A stretch of 64,000 bases of DNA from Candidatus Uhrbacteria bacterium (GTDB taxonomy: Bacteria; Patescibacteriota; Patescibacteriia; UBA9934), in the NCBI GenBank assembly GCA_943359325.1, contig CALRHD010000002.1:4629-68628 (forward strand), read 5' to 3'. Position numbers and translations under genes: made by a program. The stretch's first letter is position 1; each line of letters begins with the position of its first letter. This document shows, piece by piece, positions 2,218 through 63,923 of the stretch. The notes below the pieces were generated by a model. That model worked only from the letters and a program-made list of their open reading frames with translations, was not told where the DNA came from and did not search any database.

Positions 2218-2220
2218 TTC

Positions 2221-2256
2221 GTGATGAGCCTTGTCCACGACTCAGTTGCGGACACC
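2221..2256 (+). repeat. REP-like palindromic element copy 1. It has the flank GTGATGAGCCTTG plus the hairpin GTCCACGAC-TCA-GTTGCGGAC, and the stop codon of the RAYT gene lies inside it.
   Basis: I read this directly. The same core of about 21 nt recurs at 3000, 4336, 17401, 33636, 42864 and 63902. It sits between the convergent recG and RAYT genes. Confidence 0.8.
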
Positions 2257-2880
2257 GCTCCATTCTCGCATAAACTTTTGGTAATCACTTTTTCCTTGAA
2301 ACAGATTACTGAGAATATCCATGCTGACGATAGGATCGTGTACCAGCATCAGATAGTGACTGTAGCTTGACCATGGATATGATGTGAGAAGTGCATTTGC
2401 GACATCCCAGTTTTCTATACCGCGAATCTTCCAGTCGGGGAGAAAGAGCTTGAGTGGATTGAAGTGGATATATCGCGAAATGTGTAGAAGCTGTGCGTCG
2501 CTTTTTATTGGCACAGCCTTATATTCACTTTCCCATAGCCGTCCCGTTCGCTCATTTTGACGATTAAAGTATTGAGCAAAACCAACACCCAACTTCTGCA
2601 TAAAGCGTGATACCCCATTGTCTGATACTTGTTTTAGGAGAAAATGGTAATGATTTGGCATGATCGCGTAACTCATAATTTTCACTAAAGGATTCTTGCT
2701 CGGTGATGGGCGGTGCTGGAGTCTGTGGAGAACGATTCTCCTGTCGCCCGTATCATTGAAGGCGAGCATACTGCGAATGAATCGTTCGCGATCGTTGTCG
2801 TTGCCATACGTCGATCGACGATCAACGCCGCGATTATATACATGATAGTAACCATCATTGACGATTTGTTCCTTGCGCAT
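2242..2880 (-). CDS. IS200/IS605-family HUH Y1 transposase, probably a REP-associated tyrosine transposase (RAYT, TnpA_REP)
   Basis: N-terminal GYYHVYNRG is followed by the HUH motif MPNHYHFLL and a C-terminal RLWESEY...YIHFNPLK with the catalytic Tyr region. There is no tnpB partner. It is flanked on both sides by REP-like hairpins. The start is taken at the Met of MRKEQIV, although the track ORF extends to 2985. Confidence 0.75.
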   Translation of the reverse strand: MRKEQIVNDGYYHVYNRGVDRRSTYGNDNDRERFIRSMLAFNDTGDRRIVLHRLQHRPSPSKNPLVKIMSYAIMPNHYHFLLKQVSDNGVSRFMQKLGVGFAQYFNRQNERTGRLWESEYKAVPIKSDAQLLHISRYIHFNPLKLFLPDWKIRGIENWDVANALLTSYPWSSYSHYLMLVHDPIVSMDILSNLFQGKSDYQKFMREWSGVRN

Positions 2881-2987
2881 AAAAAAGATGTTAAACAGTA
2901 AATAAAAATCTCCCAATGCGCTCATCATAATAGATGAACGTAGGGAGTACGTATTCATTTTCCTGCGAAGCACGACGGACGTCAAGT

Positions 2988-3022
2988 GTGGATAAGTTTG
3001 TCCACGACTCAGTTGCGGACAT
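2988..3022 (+). repeat. REP-like palindromic element copy 2 (GTGGATAAGTTTG-GTCCACGACTCAGTTGCGGAC-AT)
   Basis: Read directly. It lies between the RAYT start and the radA stop, in the same orientation as copy 1. Confidence 0.85.
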
Positions 3023-4299: not shown

Positions 4300-4320
4300 A
4301 TTTTACGCCCCCTTCACACT

Positions 4321-4356
4321 GTGGATAACTATGTCCTCGACTCAGTTGAGGACACT
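4321..4356 (+). repeat. REP-like element copy 3. It is a variant, GTCCTCGAC-TCA-GTTGAGGAC, in which both stem arms have changed in a compensatory way.
   Basis: Read directly. The flank GTGGATAACTATG is conserved and the stem carries an A>T change paired with a C>A change. It lies between the radA start and the stop of ORF 4355..5812. Confidence 0.8.
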
Positions 4357-5812
4357 ACCGGCACATCGTTGTTGGTCTGACGCTTTCGCTGATGGGCGTG
4401 ACGCAGCAGTGGTTTTTCGCGTCCCATGTTTTGCAGAGCGCCGTCGAGTACACGGTACCGTTTGCGCCGCCAATGCGATAGCTCGAGTCGCCAAACGCCG
4501 TGTTGCACGACGACGACCCTTGCCCTGCGAGTTCAAAGTGCCACGGCTCGTTCGGAATGCGGCAAAACCCATTCGCGAACAGTGTTTGCGTCATGAGGTT
4601 TTGTAGCGTGACGTCGAATTGAAATCCTGTACCCGACCCCTCTGCCCATAAATCGGCAGCGACGTTGTTCGTATGTGTGCAATTGCGTCCGTCGCCATGG
4701 GCAACGAGCCCCGCGATAACTTCGGATTTGCTTATTCCAGAGTACGCATCGGTGAGCGTCCATTTTCCGCTCACTTTGCTTATCACTGTTTTGTCGCTTC
4801 CGTCGACATTACACGTATCAGGACTGCAGTAGCCATTTTTTGCGACACAATTCTCGTAGAAGAGCGTTGCTTGTTTTTGGATGCTACGACTTCCTGACGT
4901 TACACGAATGTTTTTCGCATTTCCAGGATTCAATGCATTACTCGCGGTGTAAAATTTTCCTGCTGCGGCCGTCAATTTCGTGAGGACATCTTTACCGATA
5001 TACGTGTCCCCTGATTTCACACTAACAATGAGATGAGTGCCCCCCCCTCCTACAAGTTGCGTGACATCGTCGCCTTGCACGATAGCAATCGCAGGCATGT
5101 AGTCTGCGAAGTCTTCGAAATCGGCAGTCGCGACGTATTCGATGGTTTTTATTTTGAGAGTTGCGAATTTTACGGTGTGCGGGTCGATGAGAAACGCAAT
5201 AGTATACGCCGACATGAGGAGGACCATGCCCGTTACTGCGTTCACCATACGGGTTTTTGCTTGCTTTACGGCGTCCGCATGACCGCGCGAAAGAATGTAT
5301 TGGAATCCACCGACCATGAGCATGATAATGGCGACGAGTGCCATGGCGACCATGAGAAACCTGTAGAGCGCATCGACATACGATGCGAGGTAGTTTATGT
5401 TCAGATTGCCGTCGGCGTCGTAGGTAAGACCGTTTGAAAAGTCGAGTCCAGGAATGGCGACGTTGAGATTGGGAATAATCGGATTGCGCTTTTCGCCACC
5501 CTCGGTGTTGTCTTCTGTTTCTGCTACTGCCTCTTGACTTGTGATTGTACCCGCACCAACAGGTGCGTCATTCCCTTCGTTGTCCGTGCAGATGAGCGAC
5601 CAGTTGACATTGCCTTTTGTTGCATATGGCGTGCACGCAGTGATGCAGCTCGACATGAGGTTGTTCGCATTTTCTTCGACGGTTCCTTCACCATTCGACA
5701 GGTCTTGATAGACACACGAACAGGTGTATGAATCCTGCATGCAATAAACCGCCGACGCATGCAGCGGTGCGAAAATGAGCAGTGCGGTGATGACGATGAG
5801 AATGCGTTTCAT
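4355..5812 (-). CDS. Secreted, membrane-anchored Cys-rich protein with a C-terminal LAS/M15-type peptidase (VanY-like D,D-carboxypeptidase) domain
   Basis: It has a signal peptide and many Cys residues. A central hairpin of two hydrophobic helices around a charged loop (FLMVAMALVAIIMLMVGGF...RGHADAVKQAKTR...AVTGMVLLMSAYTIAF) resembles TrbC/VirB2-type pilins. The C-terminal NEPWHFEL resembles the EPWH(Y)RYVG motif of M15B peptidases. Its start overlaps dsbA by 4 nt (ATGA). Confidence 0.5.
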   Translation of the reverse strand: MKRILIVITALLIFAPLHASAVYCMQDSYTCSCVYQDLSNGEGTVEENANNLMSSCITACTPYATKGNVNWSLICTDNEGNDAPVGAGTITSQEAVAETEDNTEGGEKRNPIIPNLNVAIPGLDFSNGLTYDADGNLNINYLASYVDALYRFLMVAMALVAIIMLMVGGFQYILSRGHADAVKQAKTRMVNAVTGMVLLMSAYTIAFLIDPHTVKFATLKIKTIEYVATADFEDFADYMPAIAIVQGDDVTQLVGGGGTHLIVSVKSGDTYIGKDVLTKLTAAAGKFYTASNALNPGNAKNIRVTSGSRSIQKQATLFYENCVAKNGYCSPDTCNVDGSDKTVISKVSGKWTLTDAYSGISKSEVIAGLVAHGDGRNCTHTNNVAADLWAEGSGTGFQFDVTLQNLMTQTLFANGFCRIPNEPWHFELAGQGSSSCNTAFGDSSYRIGGANGTVYSTALCKTWDAKNHCCVTPISESVRPTTMCR

Positions 5813-7702: not shown

Positions 7703-8452
7703 CTATCTGCCAAATGTGATTTCTGCCCATGCCCGAATGCCAAGCATGGGATTTGTGACAATTTCATAGCCGATAACGATGAACATGACGAATACGCCGA
7801 GGATAAAAAACACCCAGAAATACAAGAAAACGGCGTCGACGAGTTGACCCCAGCCGTGCATGCTTCGAAGATCGAATTTTTGCGGCAACATTCTGCCAAG
7901 CGTGCCGCCGTTGATTTTTTCATTGAACGCGGGGAATATCGTTAACAGTAATTGATACATGCTGCCGAGCCAGCCGAATGCGAGCATGACGCCGCCGTCT
8001 GCGGGCAGCATATCAATCGTACCGCTCCCCTGAAACACGGAACCCCACACGGCTTCGTTTGCGAATTGCTCACCTTCGCTTCGTTCGCTCGCTCCTGTGA
8101 CGGTGACGCTACTACGTCCCGCTACTCGTCTGTTTGCAGGCATCTGAAGTTCATAGCTCGCTTCGTTATCTTCTGACGACCTTGCAGGAAATTCGGGAAG
8201 CCGTTGTCGTGTTGCCGACGCGATGCGTGCACGTTGTTGCGCTGCGGCGAATCGGTTTCCTTGCGGCAGCGTTGCTTCCGCGATCATAAATTTTTGATTG
8301 TTCGCGGGGTACTCTTGATTGTTCGCAGACGCGGGGGCTTCACTAGTTTCTGACAATCGCGCTCTTTGGAGCACCACGCGATTACGCAAAAATTCCCCCC
8401 GTGCAATAGCAGGATCGAACGCGGGGAGTCCTCGTGTTGCGGCCAAAGCCAT
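7703..8452 (-). CDS. Hypothetical membrane protein with transmembrane helices in the C-terminal 100 aa
   Basis: The ORF sits in the same operon. The C-terminus has two or three hydrophobic helices, while the N-terminal half is low complexity, so the true start may be internal. Confidence 0.3.
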   Translation of the reverse strand: MALAATRGLPAFDPAIARGEFLRNRVVLQRARLSETSEAPASANNQEYPANNQKFMIAEATLPQGNRFAAAQQRARIASATRQRLPEFPARSSEDNEASYELQMPANRRVAGRSSVTVTGASERSEGEQFANEAVWGSVFQGSGTIDMLPADGGVMLAFGWLGSMYQLLLTIFPAFNEKINGGTLGRMLPQKFDLRSMHGWGQLVDAVFLYFWVFFILGVFVMFIVIGYEIVTNPMLGIRAWAEITFGR

Positions 8453-11883: not shown

Positions 11884-12375
11884 ATGGCTTCTGATCTCAC
11901 AAAACAGGATCTCATTGATGCACTTCGTGGTTTGGCCACGAAAGAAGATCTGCTTCGATTTGCTACGAAGCAGGATCTTTTGGCGATACGTGAGGAAATG
12001 GCGACGAGTTTTTCATCGGTTCGTGAGGAAATGGAGACGAGTTTTTCATCGGTTCGTGAGGAAATGGAGAAAAATCACGGTGAGGTGCTGCAAATCATCA
12101 ACACGCTTTCGTCAAGTACCGATGCGGGATTTGCTCATATGCATGAAGTTATGGCGACGAAAGAGTATGTGGATAAACGTATCACCCAGTCCGAGCACGC
12201 AATAAAAGATTTTGTAGATCGTCGTGCGAGCAAAATCGAAGATGAACTCTCTGCTCCGCTAAGGGCGGTCGACGAGAAAGACACCGCACTCATCACGCAT
12301 CTCGGTAATAAAAAAGTTATTGCAAAGCCCGACGTTGCGGCTATCGTCGCGCTGTCTCCATTTGCCGCACGGTAG
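11884..12375 (+). CDS. Hypothetical coiled-coil protein with an internal tandem repeat
   Basis: A 36-nt in-frame repeat encodes SVREEMETSF twice. A TAGAAT -10-like hexamer lies about 10 nt upstream of the ATG and there is no Shine-Dalgarno sequence. Confidence 0.45.
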   Translation: MASDLTKQDLIDALRGLATKEDLLRFATKQDLLAIREEMATSFSSVREEMETSFSSVREEMEKNHGEVLQIINTLSSSTDAGFAHMHEVMATKEYVDKRITQSEHAIKDFVDRRASKIEDELSAPLRAVDEKDTALITHLGNKKVIAKPDVAAIVALSPFAAR

Positions 12376-14532: not shown

Positions 14533-14542
14533 TTATGAACAA

Positions 14543-14676
14543 TTTCTCCCACATAACATACTCCGTTCCTTGTGAAGCCCCGCAGCCGCAGTCCGTACAC
14601 AAGGCCTCGGCTTACGCCGGCCACGGACTGACGGGCGGCGCCTCACGACGTCACGAAGTATGTTATGTGGGAGAAA
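14543..14676. repeat. GC-rich structured intergenic repeat, copy 1 (about 134 bp, ERIC/MITE-like) with perfect 20-bp terminal inverted repeats TTTCTCCCACATAACATACT / AGTATGTTATGTGGGAGAAA
   Basis: Read directly. The core CCCCGCAGCCGCAGTCCGTACA(G)CAAGGCCTCGGCTTACGCCGGCCACGGACTGACGGGCGG recurs at 51934, 59989 and 61416. It lies between pheS and pheT. Confidence 0.85.
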
Positions 14677-14685
14677 TCAGTGATT

Positions 14686-17348: not shown

Positions 17349-17384
17349 AATCGCAGAATAAAAATCCGCTTTGTCAAGCAAAAA

Positions 17385-17421
17385 GTGGATAACTATGTCC
17401 ACGACTCAGTTGCGGACATAA
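17385..17421 (+). repeat. REP-like element copy 4 (GTGGATAACTATG-GTCCACGACTCAGTTGCGGAC-AT)
   Basis: Read directly. It lies immediately upstream of the dnaE start, and the track ORF translates it as a spurious MDNYVHDSVADI N-terminal extension. Confidence 0.85.
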
Positions 17422-33614: not shown

Positions 33615-33622
33615 TGAAGTTT

Positions 33623-33656
33623 GTGGATAACTATGTCCACGACTCAGTTGCGGACA
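33623..33656 (+). repeat. REP-like element copy 5 (GTGGATAACTATG-GTCCACGACTCAGTTGCGGAC-AT)
   Basis: Read directly. It fills the whole convergent spacer between the thyX stop and the dcd stop. Confidence 0.85.
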
Positions 33657-34769
33657 TCACATCTTAAAGTGTTTGCTGAGCCGTGGACCACGTTGCCGAT
33701 AGTAGTTTGAGGCAAGTTTGGCGTCGCCGTAGAGAAGTTCGGCGGGGGCGGCGAGGCGTTCGTAGATCATTTTGCAGATGGGTTGGCCGTCGCGCAGCAC
33801 GAAGTCGATGTCGTGGGTGAAAATTTCGAGAACACCCGGCGTGCCACGTATGGCACCTTCTGCACCATACCCAAATCCAGGGTCGAAAAACCCTGCGTAG
33901 TGCGAACGAAATTCGCCTTTGCTCGGGTCGTACGCAGCCATTTCTGCGGCGTACCCGTCGGGAACGCGAAGACATTCTTTTGTTGCGAAGATGTAGAAAT
34001 CTCCTCGGCGCATCATAAATTGGCCGTTCTTTGGGCGCATGATAGGTTCAAAGAATTCTGCAGGGTCATAATCGCGTTTTGCAAAGTCGAGCACGCGACA
34101 CGCGGTCGGGGAGCTTGAGTACCCAATTATGTCTTCGCTTGAAAGGTCAACAGACATCACCACACCGTCTTTGTCGACTGTAGCGCGATCGGCACGATAG
34201 GCGTTTCCCGCAAGGTCGCAGAGCAATTGCGACTGGTCGACGAGTCGGAAATGGTCGGCGTCAGAAAGCCGCGCGTCGCACGTGGCAAAACGCATCTGAT
34301 TGACTCGCTCTCCTGCATCGAGCTTCACAGGAAATGATTTTGGAATAACTTCGAGCCATAACTCGCCCTTGTATCCGCTTGGCACCATGTCGAATCGTGA
34401 AACACCGTCAATGAGAAGACGTGTTTGCAAATTGATACGGCCGGAGGACGACTTGTTGTTTGTGTATGCGTGGACAGCGTCGGGGAGCGACAGCATTTCG
34501 TTTAGCCGCACCAAATAAATGCCGAACAGCTCGAGGGGGTGCTGTAAGTCGCAGCGATACAGCATACCGTCTTTGATAAGTTCGCGAATTGTTTCGCCAC
34601 GGCGTGGAAGAAACGTACCCCGCATGCGGTATACTTCTCCCGAGAGCGACAGGTCGAGTGACGACGGCTGAAGGTGCTCAGTTTTCGCGCCATGAATGTG
34701 CCCCTCGGCCATGAGGGTACGGATATATTGGAGGGGAAGTGCGCCACGAACGTCGATCCAGTTGGTCAT
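33657..34769 (-). CDS. dcd: 2'-deoxycytidine 5'-triphosphate deaminase (long DCD form with a tandem dUTPase-like fold)
   Basis: The motif SSLDLSLSGEV is typical of the dCTP deaminase/dUTPase fold. The roughly 370-aa length matches the DCD (PF06559-type) family. Confidence 0.6.
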   Translation of the reverse strand: MTNWIDVRGALPLQYIRTLMAEGHIHGAKTEHLQPSSLDLSLSGEVYRMRGTFLPRRGETIRELIKDGMLYRCDLQHPLELFGIYLVRLNEMLSLPDAVHAYTNNKSSSGRINLQTRLLIDGVSRFDMVPSGYKGELWLEVIPKSFPVKLDAGERVNQMRFATCDARLSDADHFRLVDQSQLLCDLAGNAYRADRATVDKDGVVMSVDLSSEDIIGYSSSPTACRVLDFAKRDYDPAEFFEPIMRPKNGQFMMRRGDFYIFATKECLRVPDGYAAEMAAYDPSKGEFRSHYAGFFDPGFGYGAEGAIRGTPGVLEIFTHDIDFVLRDGQPICKMIYERLAAPAELLYGDAKLASNYYRQRGPRLSKHFKM

Positions 34770-42850: not shown

Positions 42851-42852
42851 CT

Positions 42853-42886
42853 ATGGATAACTCTGTCCACGACTCAGTCGTGGACA
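42853..42886 (+). repeat. REP-like element copy 6. It is a perfect-palindrome variant, GTCCACGAC-TCA-GTCGTGGAC, with the flank ATGGATAACTCTG.
   Basis: Read directly. It lies between the two permease genes. Confidence 0.85.
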
Positions 42887-51915: not shown

Positions 51916-51933
51916 ATTTTATGTTGTACATGG

Positions 51934-52068
51934 CTTTTCCTGCATGGCATGCTCCACTCCTTGTTCAGCCCCGCAGCCGCAGTCCGTACAGCAAGGCCTC
52001 GGCTTACGCCGGCCACGGACTGACGGGCGGTGCCGAACGACGTCGCAAAGCATGCCATGCAGAAAGAG
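51934..52068. repeat. GC-rich structured intergenic repeat, copy 2. Its terminal inverted repeats CTTTTCCTGCATGGCATGCT / AGCATGCCATGCAGAAAGAG differ from copy 1 by compensatory transitions.
   Basis: Read directly. It lies between the rpmE 3' end and the prfA 5' end. Confidence 0.85.
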
Positions 52069-52100
52069 CGTTACGCCCAGTGTATCCGAACTTCGTGCGA

Positions 52101-59200: not shown

Positions 59201-59980
59201 ATGGCAACAAACGGGGGAGGTTTTTGGCCGCGATGGGACGAGCATAAATTATTTTTTGTATTGCTCGCGATATTGATGGTGTATGCAACGGTGCTCGTAT
59301 TTGTACACATTGAGAAGACGATTGTTGAAGTACGTGGCGTGGGGTTTGCCGATCAAACTGCGCCAACGATTTCGGTGACCGGTGAAGGTAAAGCAAGTGC
59401 GGTGCCCGACATTGCAAAAGTCGATATGATCGTGACGAATAAGGCGGCAAACACGTCGGCGGCACAAAGTGTAAACACCACGGTTATGAATGGGCTTATT
59501 GCGGCTATGCGGAATGCGGGGGTTGCGGAGAAGGATTTGAAAACGTCATCGTATAGTGTGTATCCCGTGTACGATTATGACGTGAGTCCTGCAACGATTA
59601 CCGGCTACGAAGCGTCGCAAACATTGAGTGTGACAATCCGCGATACTGAAAAATCGGGTGCAATTTTGGAAGCGGCAGGCAGCAATGGTGCGACGCAGAT
59701 TGGGAGTCTTCGTATGGAGGTTGACGATGAAACTGACGTGAAGAGCGAAGCGCGAAAGGCGGCGATTGCGGATGCACGCGCTGAGGCCGAGAGTATCGCA
59801 GCGGCGATGGATGCACGTCTTGGACGTGTCGTAAGTTATTACGAGTCAGAAGGTGGAAGTATGGGCTTTTATTACGAAGGGGCGATGTTGTCCGATAGCA
59901 TGAAAGTGGGCGCACCCGACATTGCAGAAGGGGAAAACGAAACGAACATTACGGTGACAATGACATACGCCATTCAGTAA
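59201..59980 (+). CDS. SIMPL/DUF541 (BP26/OMP28-like) periplasmic protein with an N-terminal membrane anchor
   Basis: The motifs ISVTGEGKASAVPDIA and SYSVYPVYDY are typical of SIMPL domains. Confidence 0.6.
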   Translation: MATNGGGFWPRWDEHKLFFVLLAILMVYATVLVFVHIEKTIVEVRGVGFADQTAPTISVTGEGKASAVPDIAKVDMIVTNKAANTSAAQSVNTTVMNGLIAAMRNAGVAEKDLKTSSYSVYPVYDYDVSPATITGYEASQTLSVTIRDTEKSGAILEAAGSNGATQIGSLRMEVDDETDVKSEARKAAIADARAEAESIAAAMDARLGRVVSYYESEGGSMGFYYEGAMLSDSMKVGAPDIAEGENETNITVTMTYAIQ

Positions 59981-59988
59981 ATCTGCAA

Positions 59989-60123
59989 CTCTCCCATCAC
60001 AACATACTCCGCTCCTTGTGAAGCCCCGCAGCCGTAGTCCGTACAGCAAGGCCTCGGCTTACGCCGGCCACGGACTGACGGGCGGTGCTACACTGCGTCG
60101 CAAAGTATGTTATGACGGGAGAG
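59989..60123. repeat. GC-rich structured intergenic repeat, copy 3, with terminal inverted repeats CTCTCCCATCACAACATACT / AGTATGTTATGACGGGAGAG
   Basis: Read directly. It lies between the SIMPL gene and eno. Confidence 0.85.
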
Positions 60124-60146
60124 ATCGGAGAAAATTAGAAGGAGTT

Positions 60147-61415
60147 ATGAAAGAACGTATTGACGTTATTCATGCACACGAAATTCTCGATTCGCGTGGA
60201 AACCCCACGTTGAACGTGACGGTGATGCTCAAAAACGGCCTGCGAGGGAGTGCATCGGTGCCGAGTGGAGCGTCGACGGGAGTTCATGAGGCGCTTGAAT
60301 TGCGAGACGGCGACATGTCGCGGTACCGTGGCAAAGGTGTGCGAAAGGCAGTAAAGAATGTAAATGTGACGATTGCAAAAGCGCTGCGTGGCATGGACGT
60401 TTTTGACGTTCGAGCGCTCGACGACGCAATGCGTATTATCGATGGTACGGAGAATAAGCATGTGCTTGGCGCGAACGCCATTCTCGGCGTGTCGCTTGCG
60501 TGCGCACATGCGGGTGCACGGAGGGCGAACACGCCGCTTTACGAACACATTCGCAATGTGTTCGGGTTACGCTACAACGGGTTTACGCTGCCAACGCCGT
60601 TCATGAACGTGTTTAACGGCGGCCTGCATGCCGACACGAATCTCGACATGCAGGAATTTATTATTATTCCCCACGGATTTAAAAAGTATTCTCGAAAAGT
60701 ACAGGCGGGGAGTGAGATTTTTCATGCGCTTGGTGACGTGCTGCACGCTGATGGGCTCGACACGGATGTGGGGAACGAAGGCGGCTACGCACCAAACGTC
60801 GGCAAAACAGAAGTTGCGCTCGAGTATTTGGCAAAGGCGACAAAAAAAGCAAAATATAAACTTGGTGGTGAAATTGGATTCGGCATCGACGTTGCAGCGA
60901 GTGAGTTCTATGACGCCAAAAAGGACAGGTATATTTTACGGACAGACAGACGGAAATTGAATGGGGGAGAGATGATTGATTTGTATGAGCAGTGGCTGAA
61001 GAAATATCCACTCATGTCGGTTGAAGACGGGCTCGACCAAGACGCATGGGTGGACTGGGCGATGCTCACCAAGCGTCTTGGCAAAAAAATGCTGCTCGTC
61101 GGGGATGATCTTTTTGTAACGAATGTAGAACGAGTGAAAATGGGACTTTCGCAAAAAGTTGCGAACGCCGTGCTCATAAAGCCAAACCAGATTGGTACGC
61201 TCTCGGAAACGATCGATACTATTCTGCTTGCGCAGAAGCACAAATATAAAATAGTTATCTCGCACCGTTCAGGAGAAACAAGCGACACAACGATTGCCGA
61301 CCTCGCCGTTGCGGTGAACGCGCAGTACATCAAGTCGGGCGCACCTTCGCGTTCGGAGCGGCTTTCGAAATATAATCGACTGCTTGAAATTGAGGAGGAG
61401 CTAGATGGAATTTGA
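60147..61415 (+). CDS. eno: Enolase
   Basis: The N-terminus is ILDSRGNPT. The C-terminal motif SHRSGETSDTTIADLAV is present. An AAGGAG Shine-Dalgarno sequence lies 5 nt upstream. The track ORF start at 60018 lies inside the repeat. Confidence 0.92.
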   Translation: MKERIDVIHAHEILDSRGNPTLNVTVMLKNGLRGSASVPSGASTGVHEALELRDGDMSRYRGKGVRKAVKNVNVTIAKALRGMDVFDVRALDDAMRIIDGTENKHVLGANAILGVSLACAHAGARRANTPLYEHIRNVFGLRYNGFTLPTPFMNVFNGGLHADTNLDMQEFIIIPHGFKKYSRKVQAGSEIFHALGDVLHADGLDTDVGNEGGYAPNVGKTEVALEYLAKATKKAKYKLGGEIGFGIDVAASEFYDAKKDRYILRTDRRKLNGGEMIDLYEQWLKKYPLMSVEDGLDQDAWVDWAMLTKRLGKKMLLVGDDLFVTNVERVKMGLSQKVANAVLIKPNQIGTLSETIDTILLAQKHKYKIVISHRSGETSDTTIADLAVAVNAQYIKSGAPSRSERLSKYNRLLEIEEELDGI

Positions 61416-61507
61416 CGCCCCCGCAGCCGCAGTCCGTACGGCAAGGCCTCGGCTTACGCCGGCCACGGACTGACGGGCGGTGCCGAACGACGTCGCAAAG
61501 CATGTAG
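61416..61507. repeat. GC-rich structured repeat, copy 4, which is partial: the 5' arm is missing and it abuts the eno stop codon
   Basis: Read directly. The core and 3' arm are present but there is no outer terminal inverted repeat. Confidence 0.8.
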
Positions 61508-61541
61508 TATAGGGATATACACCATGCTAGTCGCTCGATCG

Positions 61542-63885: not shown

Positions 63886-63923
63886 GTGGGGATAAGTATG
63901 TCCACGACTGAGTCGTGGACATA
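63886..63923 (+). repeat. REP-like element copy 7 (GTGGGGATAAGTATG-GTCCACGAC-TGA-GTCGTGGAC-AT), a perfect palindrome with an inverted loop
   Basis: Read directly. It lies in the lexA upstream region. Confidence 0.85.

Follow-up and report, generated by a model that had tools for sequence, protein, structure and literature searches.

The stretch of DNA considered here (the window) comprises 64,000 nucleotides (nt) from a Candidatus Uhrbacteria bacterium, and the region taken up, positions 2221-3022, contains a single gene, on the minus strand, that encodes a protein of the HUH/Y1 transposase family and lies between two copies of a short hairpin-forming repeat. The neighbours of the gene are recG and radA, so that it has no TnpB partner, as the preliminary description of this region had stated. 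Public gene calls use a longer start at 2928, 48 nt upstream, which gives the 228-aa database protein P0001; the MRK start at 2880 is the one found in most of 43 aligned homologues. No second copy of the gene is present in the window, and its database matches occur in one genomic context. The nearest named homologues of the protein are from Candidatus Uhrbacteria and the "Patescibacteria group." In the databases, the window corresponds to positions 4629-68628 of contig CALRAF010000003.1 in the metagenome-assembled genome GCA_943350455.1. A second assembly of the source genome, L108, with 99.98% identity over the shared part, extends the sequence by 10 kb to the right, for a total of 73.8 kb.

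The protein has the hallmarks of a Y1 transposase, and in particular of the tyrosine transposases that go with repetitive extragenic palindromes (REPs), the RAYTs, that had been read earlier from its open reading frame (ORF). The Pfam model Y1_Tnp (PF01797) matches it with 38.7 bits (cut-off 23) and also matches all 43 aligned homologues, while the NCBIfam model REP_Tyr_transpos (NF047646) gives 52.4 bits versus 14 bits for the IS200 model. The metal-binding HUH motif is H77-Y-H79, within the sequence NHYH (N76-H77-Y-H79), and aligns with the HVH of ISDra2 TnpA; Y137, in the sequence YIHFNP, aligns with the catalytic Y132 of the same enzyme, and WSS is found at residues 170-172. The family motif set is NH[YFH]H, L[FW][EQ], YIH[LF]NP, and WSS, represented here by NHYH, WE, YIHFNP, and WSS, and the residues H13, R17, G18, N76, H77, H79, Y137, N141, and S172 are invariant across the 43 homologues. 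The structure model (pLDDT 91) has its best structural matches in 4ER8, 2VHG, and 2EC2. Sequence searches of the PDB, made with the single protein and with the 43-sequence profile, returned ISDra2 TnpA alone, as a weak match; the link between this protein and TnpA_REP comes from the structure comparison. Within the gene, at about 2729-2743, is a small hairpin (GGAGAA-TCG-TTCTCC) that is unrelated to the flanking ones; a DnaA box with one mismatch (TTCTCCACA, 2732-2724) overlaps it.

The repeat unit is 35 nt long and on the gene strand reads TGTCCGCAAC-TGA-GTCGTGGACA, a 3-nt spacer, and then TTATCCACA. On the plus strand, the 21-mer GTCCACGAC-TCA-GTTGCGGAC is found at 2233-2253, where the TCA loop (2242-2244) is the complement of the TGA stop of the gene, and an identical 21-mer in the same orientation is found at 3000-3020, in agreement with the pair of flanking imperfect hairpins described before. 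The five further copies in the window are equally real: they lie at 4333, 17397, 33635, 42865, and 63900, have 0-3 mismatches, and bring the number of loci to seven versus 0.00 expected from 100 dinucleotide-preserving shuffles. The stem has ten pairs, counting the flanking T and A, and in the master copy includes one A/C mismatch and one G-T pair; compensatory variants exist, with a T-A pair in place of the A/C mismatch at 4333 and perfect 10-bp stems at 42865 and 63900. The 5' flank on the plus strand, (T)GTGGATAA(C/G)T(A/T/C)T (written out, TGTGGATAACTAT), is common to six of the seven copies and is degenerate in the copy at 2233, so its earlier description as conserved is correct for all but that copy. 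A scan of 185,579 reference genomes (the source metagenome-assembled genome not among them) with a degenerate form of the 21-mer found ten perfect palindromes, each isolated, in genomes that are unrelated and for the most part GC-rich; the sole match of that scan in the candidate phyla radiation (CPR), L005, has no adjoining DnaA box. No Rfam family matches anywhere in the window.

Table 1. Positions of the Y1 gene, its candidate control elements, and the repeat units in the window
Feature	Position	Strand	Details
RAYT-like HUH/Y1 gene, 212 aa	2242..2880	minus	ATG at 2880, stop TGA 2244-2242
Downstream REP unit	2220..2254	minus	hairpin 2254-2232, loop is the stop of the gene; tail 2231-2220 degenerate (AGGCTCATCACG)
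Upstream REP unit	2987..3021	minus	hairpin 3021-2999; tail AAC + TTATCCACA (2995-2987), exact DnaA-box consensus
Leader hairpin (CTCCC..TTCATC / GATGAG..GGGAG) and T-run just before ATG	2881..2956	minus	-20 kcal/mol, z -4.2
Promoter-like element, TTGACG-N17-GAAAAT	2957..2985	minus	consensus match and conservation; putative function
Dispersed REP unit	4320..4354	minus	exact DnaA box 4320-4328
Dispersed REP unit	17384..17418	minus	box TTATCCACT; between pheT and dnaE, ~30 nt upstream of dnaE start
Dispersed REP unit	33622..33656	minus	exact box; between convergent thyX and dcd
Dispersed REP unit	42852..42886	minus	perfect 10-bp stem, box TTATCCATA; between two ABC-2 permease genes
Dispersed REP unit	63887..63921	minus	perfect stem, plus-strand loop TCA, box TTATCCCCA; divergent lexA/metK promoter region

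Three more units are present in the adjoining 10 kb (L108), making ten in 73.8 kb, or a density of about one per 7-9 kb. All ten are intergenic or overlap the end of a gene, and some intergenic gaps are made up mostly of a unit, such as that between thyX and dcd (33615-33656). The hairpin of the upstream unit directly follows the radA stop (3024-3022), that of the unit at 33622..33656 immediately follows the dcd stop (33657-33659), the unit at 4320..4354 fills the gap from the stop (4355-4357) of a pilin-like gene to the start of radA (4299), and the box of the unit at 42852..42886 ends 1 nt from the stop of the upstream gene. The genes next to the units are largely those of DNA replication, repair, and nucleotide metabolism (recG, radA, dnaE, thyX/dcd, lexA, and xseA), and units are found upstream of radA, dnaE, lexA, and xseA.

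Five orthologues of the Y1 protein, 55-62% identical to it (P0002, P0003, P0005, P0009, and P0012), are all encoded in the same slot between radA and recG. Among these genomes RadA is 80-94% identical and the Y1 protein 55-71%, with a roughly similar order of relatedness, which argues for vertical descent with fast evolution. Since the locus is syntenic and the gene is single-copy, the locus is not mobile as a unit. Direct subterminal hairpins flanking a Y1 gene are the usual layout of IS200/IS605 elements, and the 790-bp hairpin-gene-hairpin segment could be taken for an autonomous IS200-like insertion sequence, with the hairpins as its ends and the other copies as solo ends or derivatives resembling miniature inverted-repeat transposable elements. 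The size of the gene between its same-strand hairpins fits that layout and the solo copies do look like non-autonomous derivatives; however, such an origin is very improbable for a single-copy gene whose position between radA and recG is constant in six genomes with RadA 80-94% identical. The protein also has the Y...NP motif rather than the Y...Q of IS200 transposases (PMC6006769 Table 1) and a score of only 14 bits with the IS200 model, is 60-70 aa longer than IS200 TnpA, has the class 2 "SS" tail, and has a fold nearer to that of TnpA_REP.

Every orthologous gene lies between two hairpins, which resemble each other within a genome. They are in direct orientation throughout the clade, so this feature, singled out in the preliminary description, is both real and conserved. 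The stems are wholly different between genomes (GTCCGCAAC, GTAGGAAAC, GTAAGAAAC, GTGGGCGCC, and GGCCGCGCC), and have been replaced completely, with pairing retained, even between genomes in which RadA is more than 90% identical. Kept across the orthologues are a stem of about ten pairs, the closing C-G pair, the TGA loop, ACA at the base of the stem, and the tail (A)GTTATCCACA followed by TTGAC. When 17 units are aligned, pairing holds in 93.9% of cells, versus 72% after shuffling and 27-51% with the partner shifted by 1-3 columns, and seven of the ten stem pairs have compensatory changes. The promoter-like element and the leader are conserved in sequence, which makes the stem a hypervariable island in a conserved region. 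The stem thus co-evolves rapidly with the protein, while the loop and tail are fixed. The pattern extends beyond the orthologues, as species-specific palindromes are found on both sides of the gene in most of 87 related loci.

The unit that moves is the singlet. At the junction of the pilin-like gene and radA, four orthologous loci have a spacer of 3-32 nt without a repeat, and here the spacer is 55 nt, consisting of a 35-nt unit right after the stop and the ribosome-binding stretch of radA; the unit at 4320..4354 is one lineage-specific insertion. In one orthologous locus (L013 9849-9910) the radA stop is followed by a tandem of two hairpin types. One, of an older GAAAC type with a decayed tail, TGTCAGAAAC-TGA-GTTTCTGCA-GTTACATC, comes first, and the current GCGCC-type unit with an intact box directly follows it; judged by its sequence, the tandem seems to document how repeats have replaced one another at a fixed site. 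In eight relatives (L023, L037, L038, L047, L052, L058, L059, and L067), the Y1 gene also includes an in-frame copy of the species-specific hairpin that flanks it, some 150-175 nt from its start, around codon 55 and ahead of the HUH motif. The one in L052 encodes TMEVEPQY, and a further internal copy occurs near +470 in L052 and L076.

Positive GC skew over the entire window and its extension marks the stretch as one replichore, with the plus strand as the lagging-strand template. The order on the plus strand is box then hairpin in all seven window units, and in the extension, which is part of the same replichore, two of three units are inverted. A strict single orientation as a signature of the replication strand was therefore given up: the count of units and their orientations, proposed earlier as a genome-wide check, yields over the 73.8 kb ten units, of which only eight have the same orientation, which is a tendency. 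TNA precedes the hairpin in five of the ten units, and with this number of units it may represent a target preference or a mere lack of intergenic room.

The position of the stop codon in the hairpin loop is real, but as the unusual feature it was first taken for, it does not hold up. The stop lies in the loop in three of six orthologues (the window gene, P0003, and P0009), in the left arm in P0002, and P0012 reads through in another frame, as P0005 apparently does. A random frame would place it in the loop in about two of six, so the arrangement looks incidental, fitting the chance framing of an invariant TGA loop, and selection for it was rejected as an explanation. Repeats that overlap the ends of these genes have already been recorded (PMC3733652). 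The C39-peptidase-like gene in the extension (L108 4777-4812; about 69015-69049 in window-extended coordinates) ends in ...VRD-TGA, with the loop of a unit as its stop, and has its frame there in common with the Y1 gene; the DnaA box of that unit ends 2-3 nt ahead of the xseA start codon.

In E. coli, REPs near stop codons have been described as protecting the 3' ends of mRNA or stalling ribosomes. If the hairpins here acted on RNA in these ways, the association with the Y1 gene would be incidental. The stop codons of radA (TAA), the pilin-like gene (TAG), dcd (TGA), and the Y1 gene itself each lie within a unit or are directly followed by one, the C39-peptidase-like gene is a fifth case, and compensatory change maintains the stem. 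However, the units at 17384 and 42852 are antisense to both neighbours, and an action on RNA alone leaves unexplained the identical 35-nt copies, the conserved non-pairing tail, and the species-specific hairpins that flank Y1 genes across the family; it has very little probability. A role as intrinsic terminators was also considered and rejected: the hairpins are not followed by a T-run and a consensus scan gave no match there.

The last part of the unit, TTATCCACA, is the consensus high-affinity (R-type) DnaA box. The conserved 5' flank is its reverse complement, an identity that the preliminary description missed. Exact TTATCCACA sites number six in 73.8 kb, versus 0.56 expected, and five of the six are inside units; among the nine intact tails, the box is exact in five and has one mismatch in the other four. 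In the orthologues the box is retained while the stem changes. An unbiased count of 9-mers in the gene flanks of the 87 family loci ranks TGTGGATAA first (13 loci versus 1.0 expected), and the density of exact boxes is 0.59 per kb in the family flanks versus 0.038 per kb elsewhere. In distant relatives the box is found 1-20 nt from a species-specific hairpin, in either orientation; in L054 the box itself forms the stem, and L086 has four units of hairpin and box scattered through 20 kb. Because the spacing and orientation of the box vary, a site read as duplex fits better than a single-strand guide. Pairing of the tail with the stem as such a guide was tried as an explanation and dropped, as the GTGGA/TCCAC pairing in the centroid fold is not kept in orthologues. 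Apart from a negative remark in PMC6006769, no paper linking DnaA boxes with REP or RAYT systems was found in the literature. The DnaA-box tail, with its recurrence across the family, is the most interesting feature and has not been described for such systems.

It is possible, though rather unlikely, that the box works as a DnaA site and takes part in the system. In the fuller form of this idea, the units would be sites of host function, dispersed high-affinity DnaA boxes beside hairpins that serve in titration of DnaA or control of neighbouring genes, and the Y1 protein would be the enzyme that maintains or disseminates them, or would use DnaA for opening of the duplex. This extends the explanation by a RAYT-like enzyme and its repeats, with which it is compatible, and on present evidence it is possible but doubtful. 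Consistent with it are the concentration of exact boxes in units, the first rank of TGTGGATAA and the density of boxes in family flanks, the four units of L086, the variable spacing (1-20 nt) and orientation, which suit a protein that binds duplex, and the presence of a Bac_DnaA_C-like domain on some subgroup 2.1.2 proteins (PMC6006769), as well as neighbours such as dnaE, lexA, radA, recG, thyX/dcd, and xseA. However, the box is present in only 15-30% of the family loci, genes of DNA metabolism are abundant in CPR genomes and the list of neighbours may mean nothing, and the 9-mer could be the recognition site of the Y1 protein itself; DnaA binding to the units is a prediction. A DnaA-like DNA-binding domain in the Y1 protein of this locus was considered and rejected, with neither sequence profiles nor structure in its support: among 43 members there is no Pfam match at E up to 10 to a C-terminal extension like Bac_DnaA_C, HTH_23, or HTH_28, and hhalign against E. 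coli DnaA gives a probability of 0.05.

The upstream box also bears on the expression of the gene. The promoter-like sequence TTGAC(G/A)-N17 begins one base after the box, and its -35 TTGAC has the same position in five orthologues. Since the box is one base from the -35, expression of the Y1 gene is probably tied to whatever binds the box, as far as the arrangement of the sequence indicates. The leader hairpin that follows is conserved in sequence upstream of the gene in L013, L101, L102, and L104, and gene callers place the start of the ORF within it; by its form, it may be an attenuator or terminator.

Taken together, the locus is probably best explained as a HUH/Y1 single-strand DNA endonuclease of the RAYT/TnpA_REP kind, domesticated and inherited vertically, with a cognate repeat family in a Patescibacteria (CPR) genome. 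The REP/RAYT pairing proposed in the preliminary description is upheld by the sequence models, the fold and catalytic motifs, the single copy and its synteny between radA and recG, the intergenic dispersal of the units, the compensatory evolution of their stems, the one lineage-specific insertion, and the species-specific palindromes at most of the related loci. By analogy with E. coli TnpA_REP and IS608 TnpA, the Y1 protein would bind the hairpin extruded on single-stranded DNA and cut beside it through Tyr137 and a metal held by H77 and H79, at sites and on a strand that the analogy can suggest. Rejoining of the strand elsewhere would then copy single units, rather than REPIN doublets, into very short intergenic gaps, and would also homogenise the two units that flank the gene.

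Several points weigh against this explanation. As single-stranded DNA, the master hairpin folds only weakly (-4.2 kcal/mol, z -1.4). The units are singlets at least about 700 nt apart and in direct orientation, not the doublets of REPINs or bacterial interspersed mosaic elements (BIMEs). The units also lack the GT[AG]G foot that is canonical for REPs; their stem has TGT...ACA at its base, and conservation falls on the tail motif nnnTTATCCACA. Of the profile searches suggested at the outset, that with PF01797 succeeded, but the score of 52.4 with REP_Tyr_transpos is below its equivalog cut-off of 80, and E. coli TnpA_REP was not found in the PDB searches with the single protein or the 43-sequence profile. 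The motifs resemble those of a subclass, 2.1, for which surveys report no REPs (PMC6006769), and the analysis covers only some 74 kb from a single genome.

REP/RAYT systems provide the foremost case of a transposase that its host has retained, but the benefit to the host is debated and the systems have been studied almost only in Proteobacteria. The locus extends this type of partnership to the streamlined genomes of Patescibacteria and to a Y1 subclass described as free of REPs, and three of its features make the question of benefit testable: the singlet unit, the complete turnover of the stem with retention of pairing, and the recurrence of the DnaA box in the family. A further idea, on balance rather unlikely, is that the repeats of the CPR Y1 family could be mobile DnaA boxes, spread and homogenised by the domesticated transposase. 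If so, then the units would supply most of the consensus DnaA boxes of a genome of about 1 Mb, and the transposase promoter, the neighbouring DNA-metabolism genes, and possibly the timing of initiation would be coupled to DnaA; alternatively, DnaA might help to open the duplex for extrusion of the hairpin. Either would explain why other subgroup 2.1.2 members have acquired a C-terminus like DnaA domain IV. Binding of DnaA to the units would link proliferation of the repeats directly to the replication initiator, would give the domesticated transposase a concrete host function, and would offer a reason for the DnaA-like domains of related proteins.

Some other features of the window and the related loci were observed in passing. 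A second intergenic repeat family is present on the plus strand in four copies (14533-14680, 51925-52075, 59979-60130, and 61398-61530), each an imperfect palindrome of about 135 nt with a nearly invariant core of about 70 nt (AGCCCCGCAGCCGCAGTCCGTAC...GGACTGACGGGCGGTGCC). Its outer stem covaries among copies (ACATAACATACT/AGTATGTTATGT versus GCATGGCATGCT/AGCATGCCATGC), and the RNA fold of one copy has an energy of -80 kcal/mol (z -6.2); Rfam gives no match to this family, whether by gathering score or with E allowed up to 1. At 11984-12070, inside a 163-aa ORF (11884-12375), are three 33-nt repeats in tandem (CG[AG]T[AT]CGTGAGGAAATGG[CA]GACGAGTTTTTCAT). To the left of the window, about 1.5 kb past recG, is a gene for a large serine recombinase with Resolvase, Recombinase, and zinc ribbon domains (L011 14253-15581); orthologous loci have other genes at this position, and the region may be an integrated element. 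In two orthologous loci (L013 17436-17477 and L018 about 7975-8018), pairs of DnaA-box-like 9-mers (TTCTCCACA, TTGTCCACA, and TTTTCCACA) about 25 nt apart occur in a conserved intergenic stretch beside a phosphoribosyltransferase gene.

Among known systems, the E. coli REPtron, which consists of TnpA_REP (RayT/YafM, PDB 4ER8) with REPs and BIMEs and belongs to subclass 2.2 (Bertels Group 2), shares with the locus the Y...NP motif, a single domesticated gene between cognate hairpins, extragenic dispersal of the hairpins, a conserved non-pairing motif at the hairpin foot, and co-evolution of protein and repeat. However, the structure-based identity of the two proteins is 13%, which is undetectable by sequence, the foot here is not GTAG but a tail of 12-13 nt ending in TTATCCACA, and the flanking copies are direct rather than inverted and singlets rather than REPIN/BIME doublets. 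The TnpA proteins of IS200/IS605 elements (IS608 and ISDra2) have the same HUH/Y1 fold, those elements also have same-strand subterminal hairpins on either side of the gene, and the eight of ten units in one orientation relative to the direction of replication are a further likeness. The differences are the Y...NP in place of Y...Q, the longer protein, the lack of TnpB, and the two flanking hairpins, which here are identical and not merely similar.

By its motifs, the protein is assigned to TnpA_Y1 class 2 and resembles subclass 2.1; it also has pairwise similarity to plasmid TIRYT-like proteins. Subgroup 2.1.2 of this subclass (Quentin et al. 2018, PMC6006769) is equivalent to the Bertels Group 1 RAYTs and to the "TIRYT" proteins of Di Nocera et al. 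2013 (PMC3733652), and the signature of the subclass is NH[VYF]H, W[EQ]/FQ, Y[IV](E/H)LNP, and an SS tail (PMC6006769 Table 1, second row). The set common to the Y1 family here is very similar (NH[YF]H, [WF][EQ], Y[IV]H[LF]NP, and a proximal WSS tail), as are the length (212-228 aa versus a median of 238 aa) and the low copy number, and the best matches on annotated plasmids are of this type (26-32% identity, E down to 7e-16). The surveys of subclass 2.1 report no REP-like hairpins, only terminal inverted repeats with GGGGWSAS, and state that its repeats do not resemble DnaA boxes, though some members carry the Bac_DnaA_C-like domain (PMC6006769). Inverted repeats with GGGGWSAS flank two of three inspected plasmid relatives (L110 and L111), as described for TIRYTs (PMC3733652), and none are found at the window locus or its orthologues; the stem base (TGTCC..GGACA) was compared with this motif, but the two are alike only in part, and the orthologues do not keep the likeness. 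In contrast to the subclass as surveyed, hairpins dispersed in the genome and bearing an exact DnaA box flank the gene here, and the C-terminal helix-turn-helix or Bac_DnaA_C-like domain is undetected by Pfam and hhalign. CPR genomes are absent from the text of the survey (PMC6006769). The same survey corrects the view that such pairs are rarely annotated outside Proteobacteria, as class 2 Y1 proteins with REPs are known in Cyanobacteria and Bacteroidetes. It also describes REPs inserted in frame within the genes of subclass 2.4 TnpA_REP; while the window gene has only its small unrelated hairpin at that position, the in-frame copies of the flanking hairpin in eight relatives (L023 to L067) are a likeness to this subclass.

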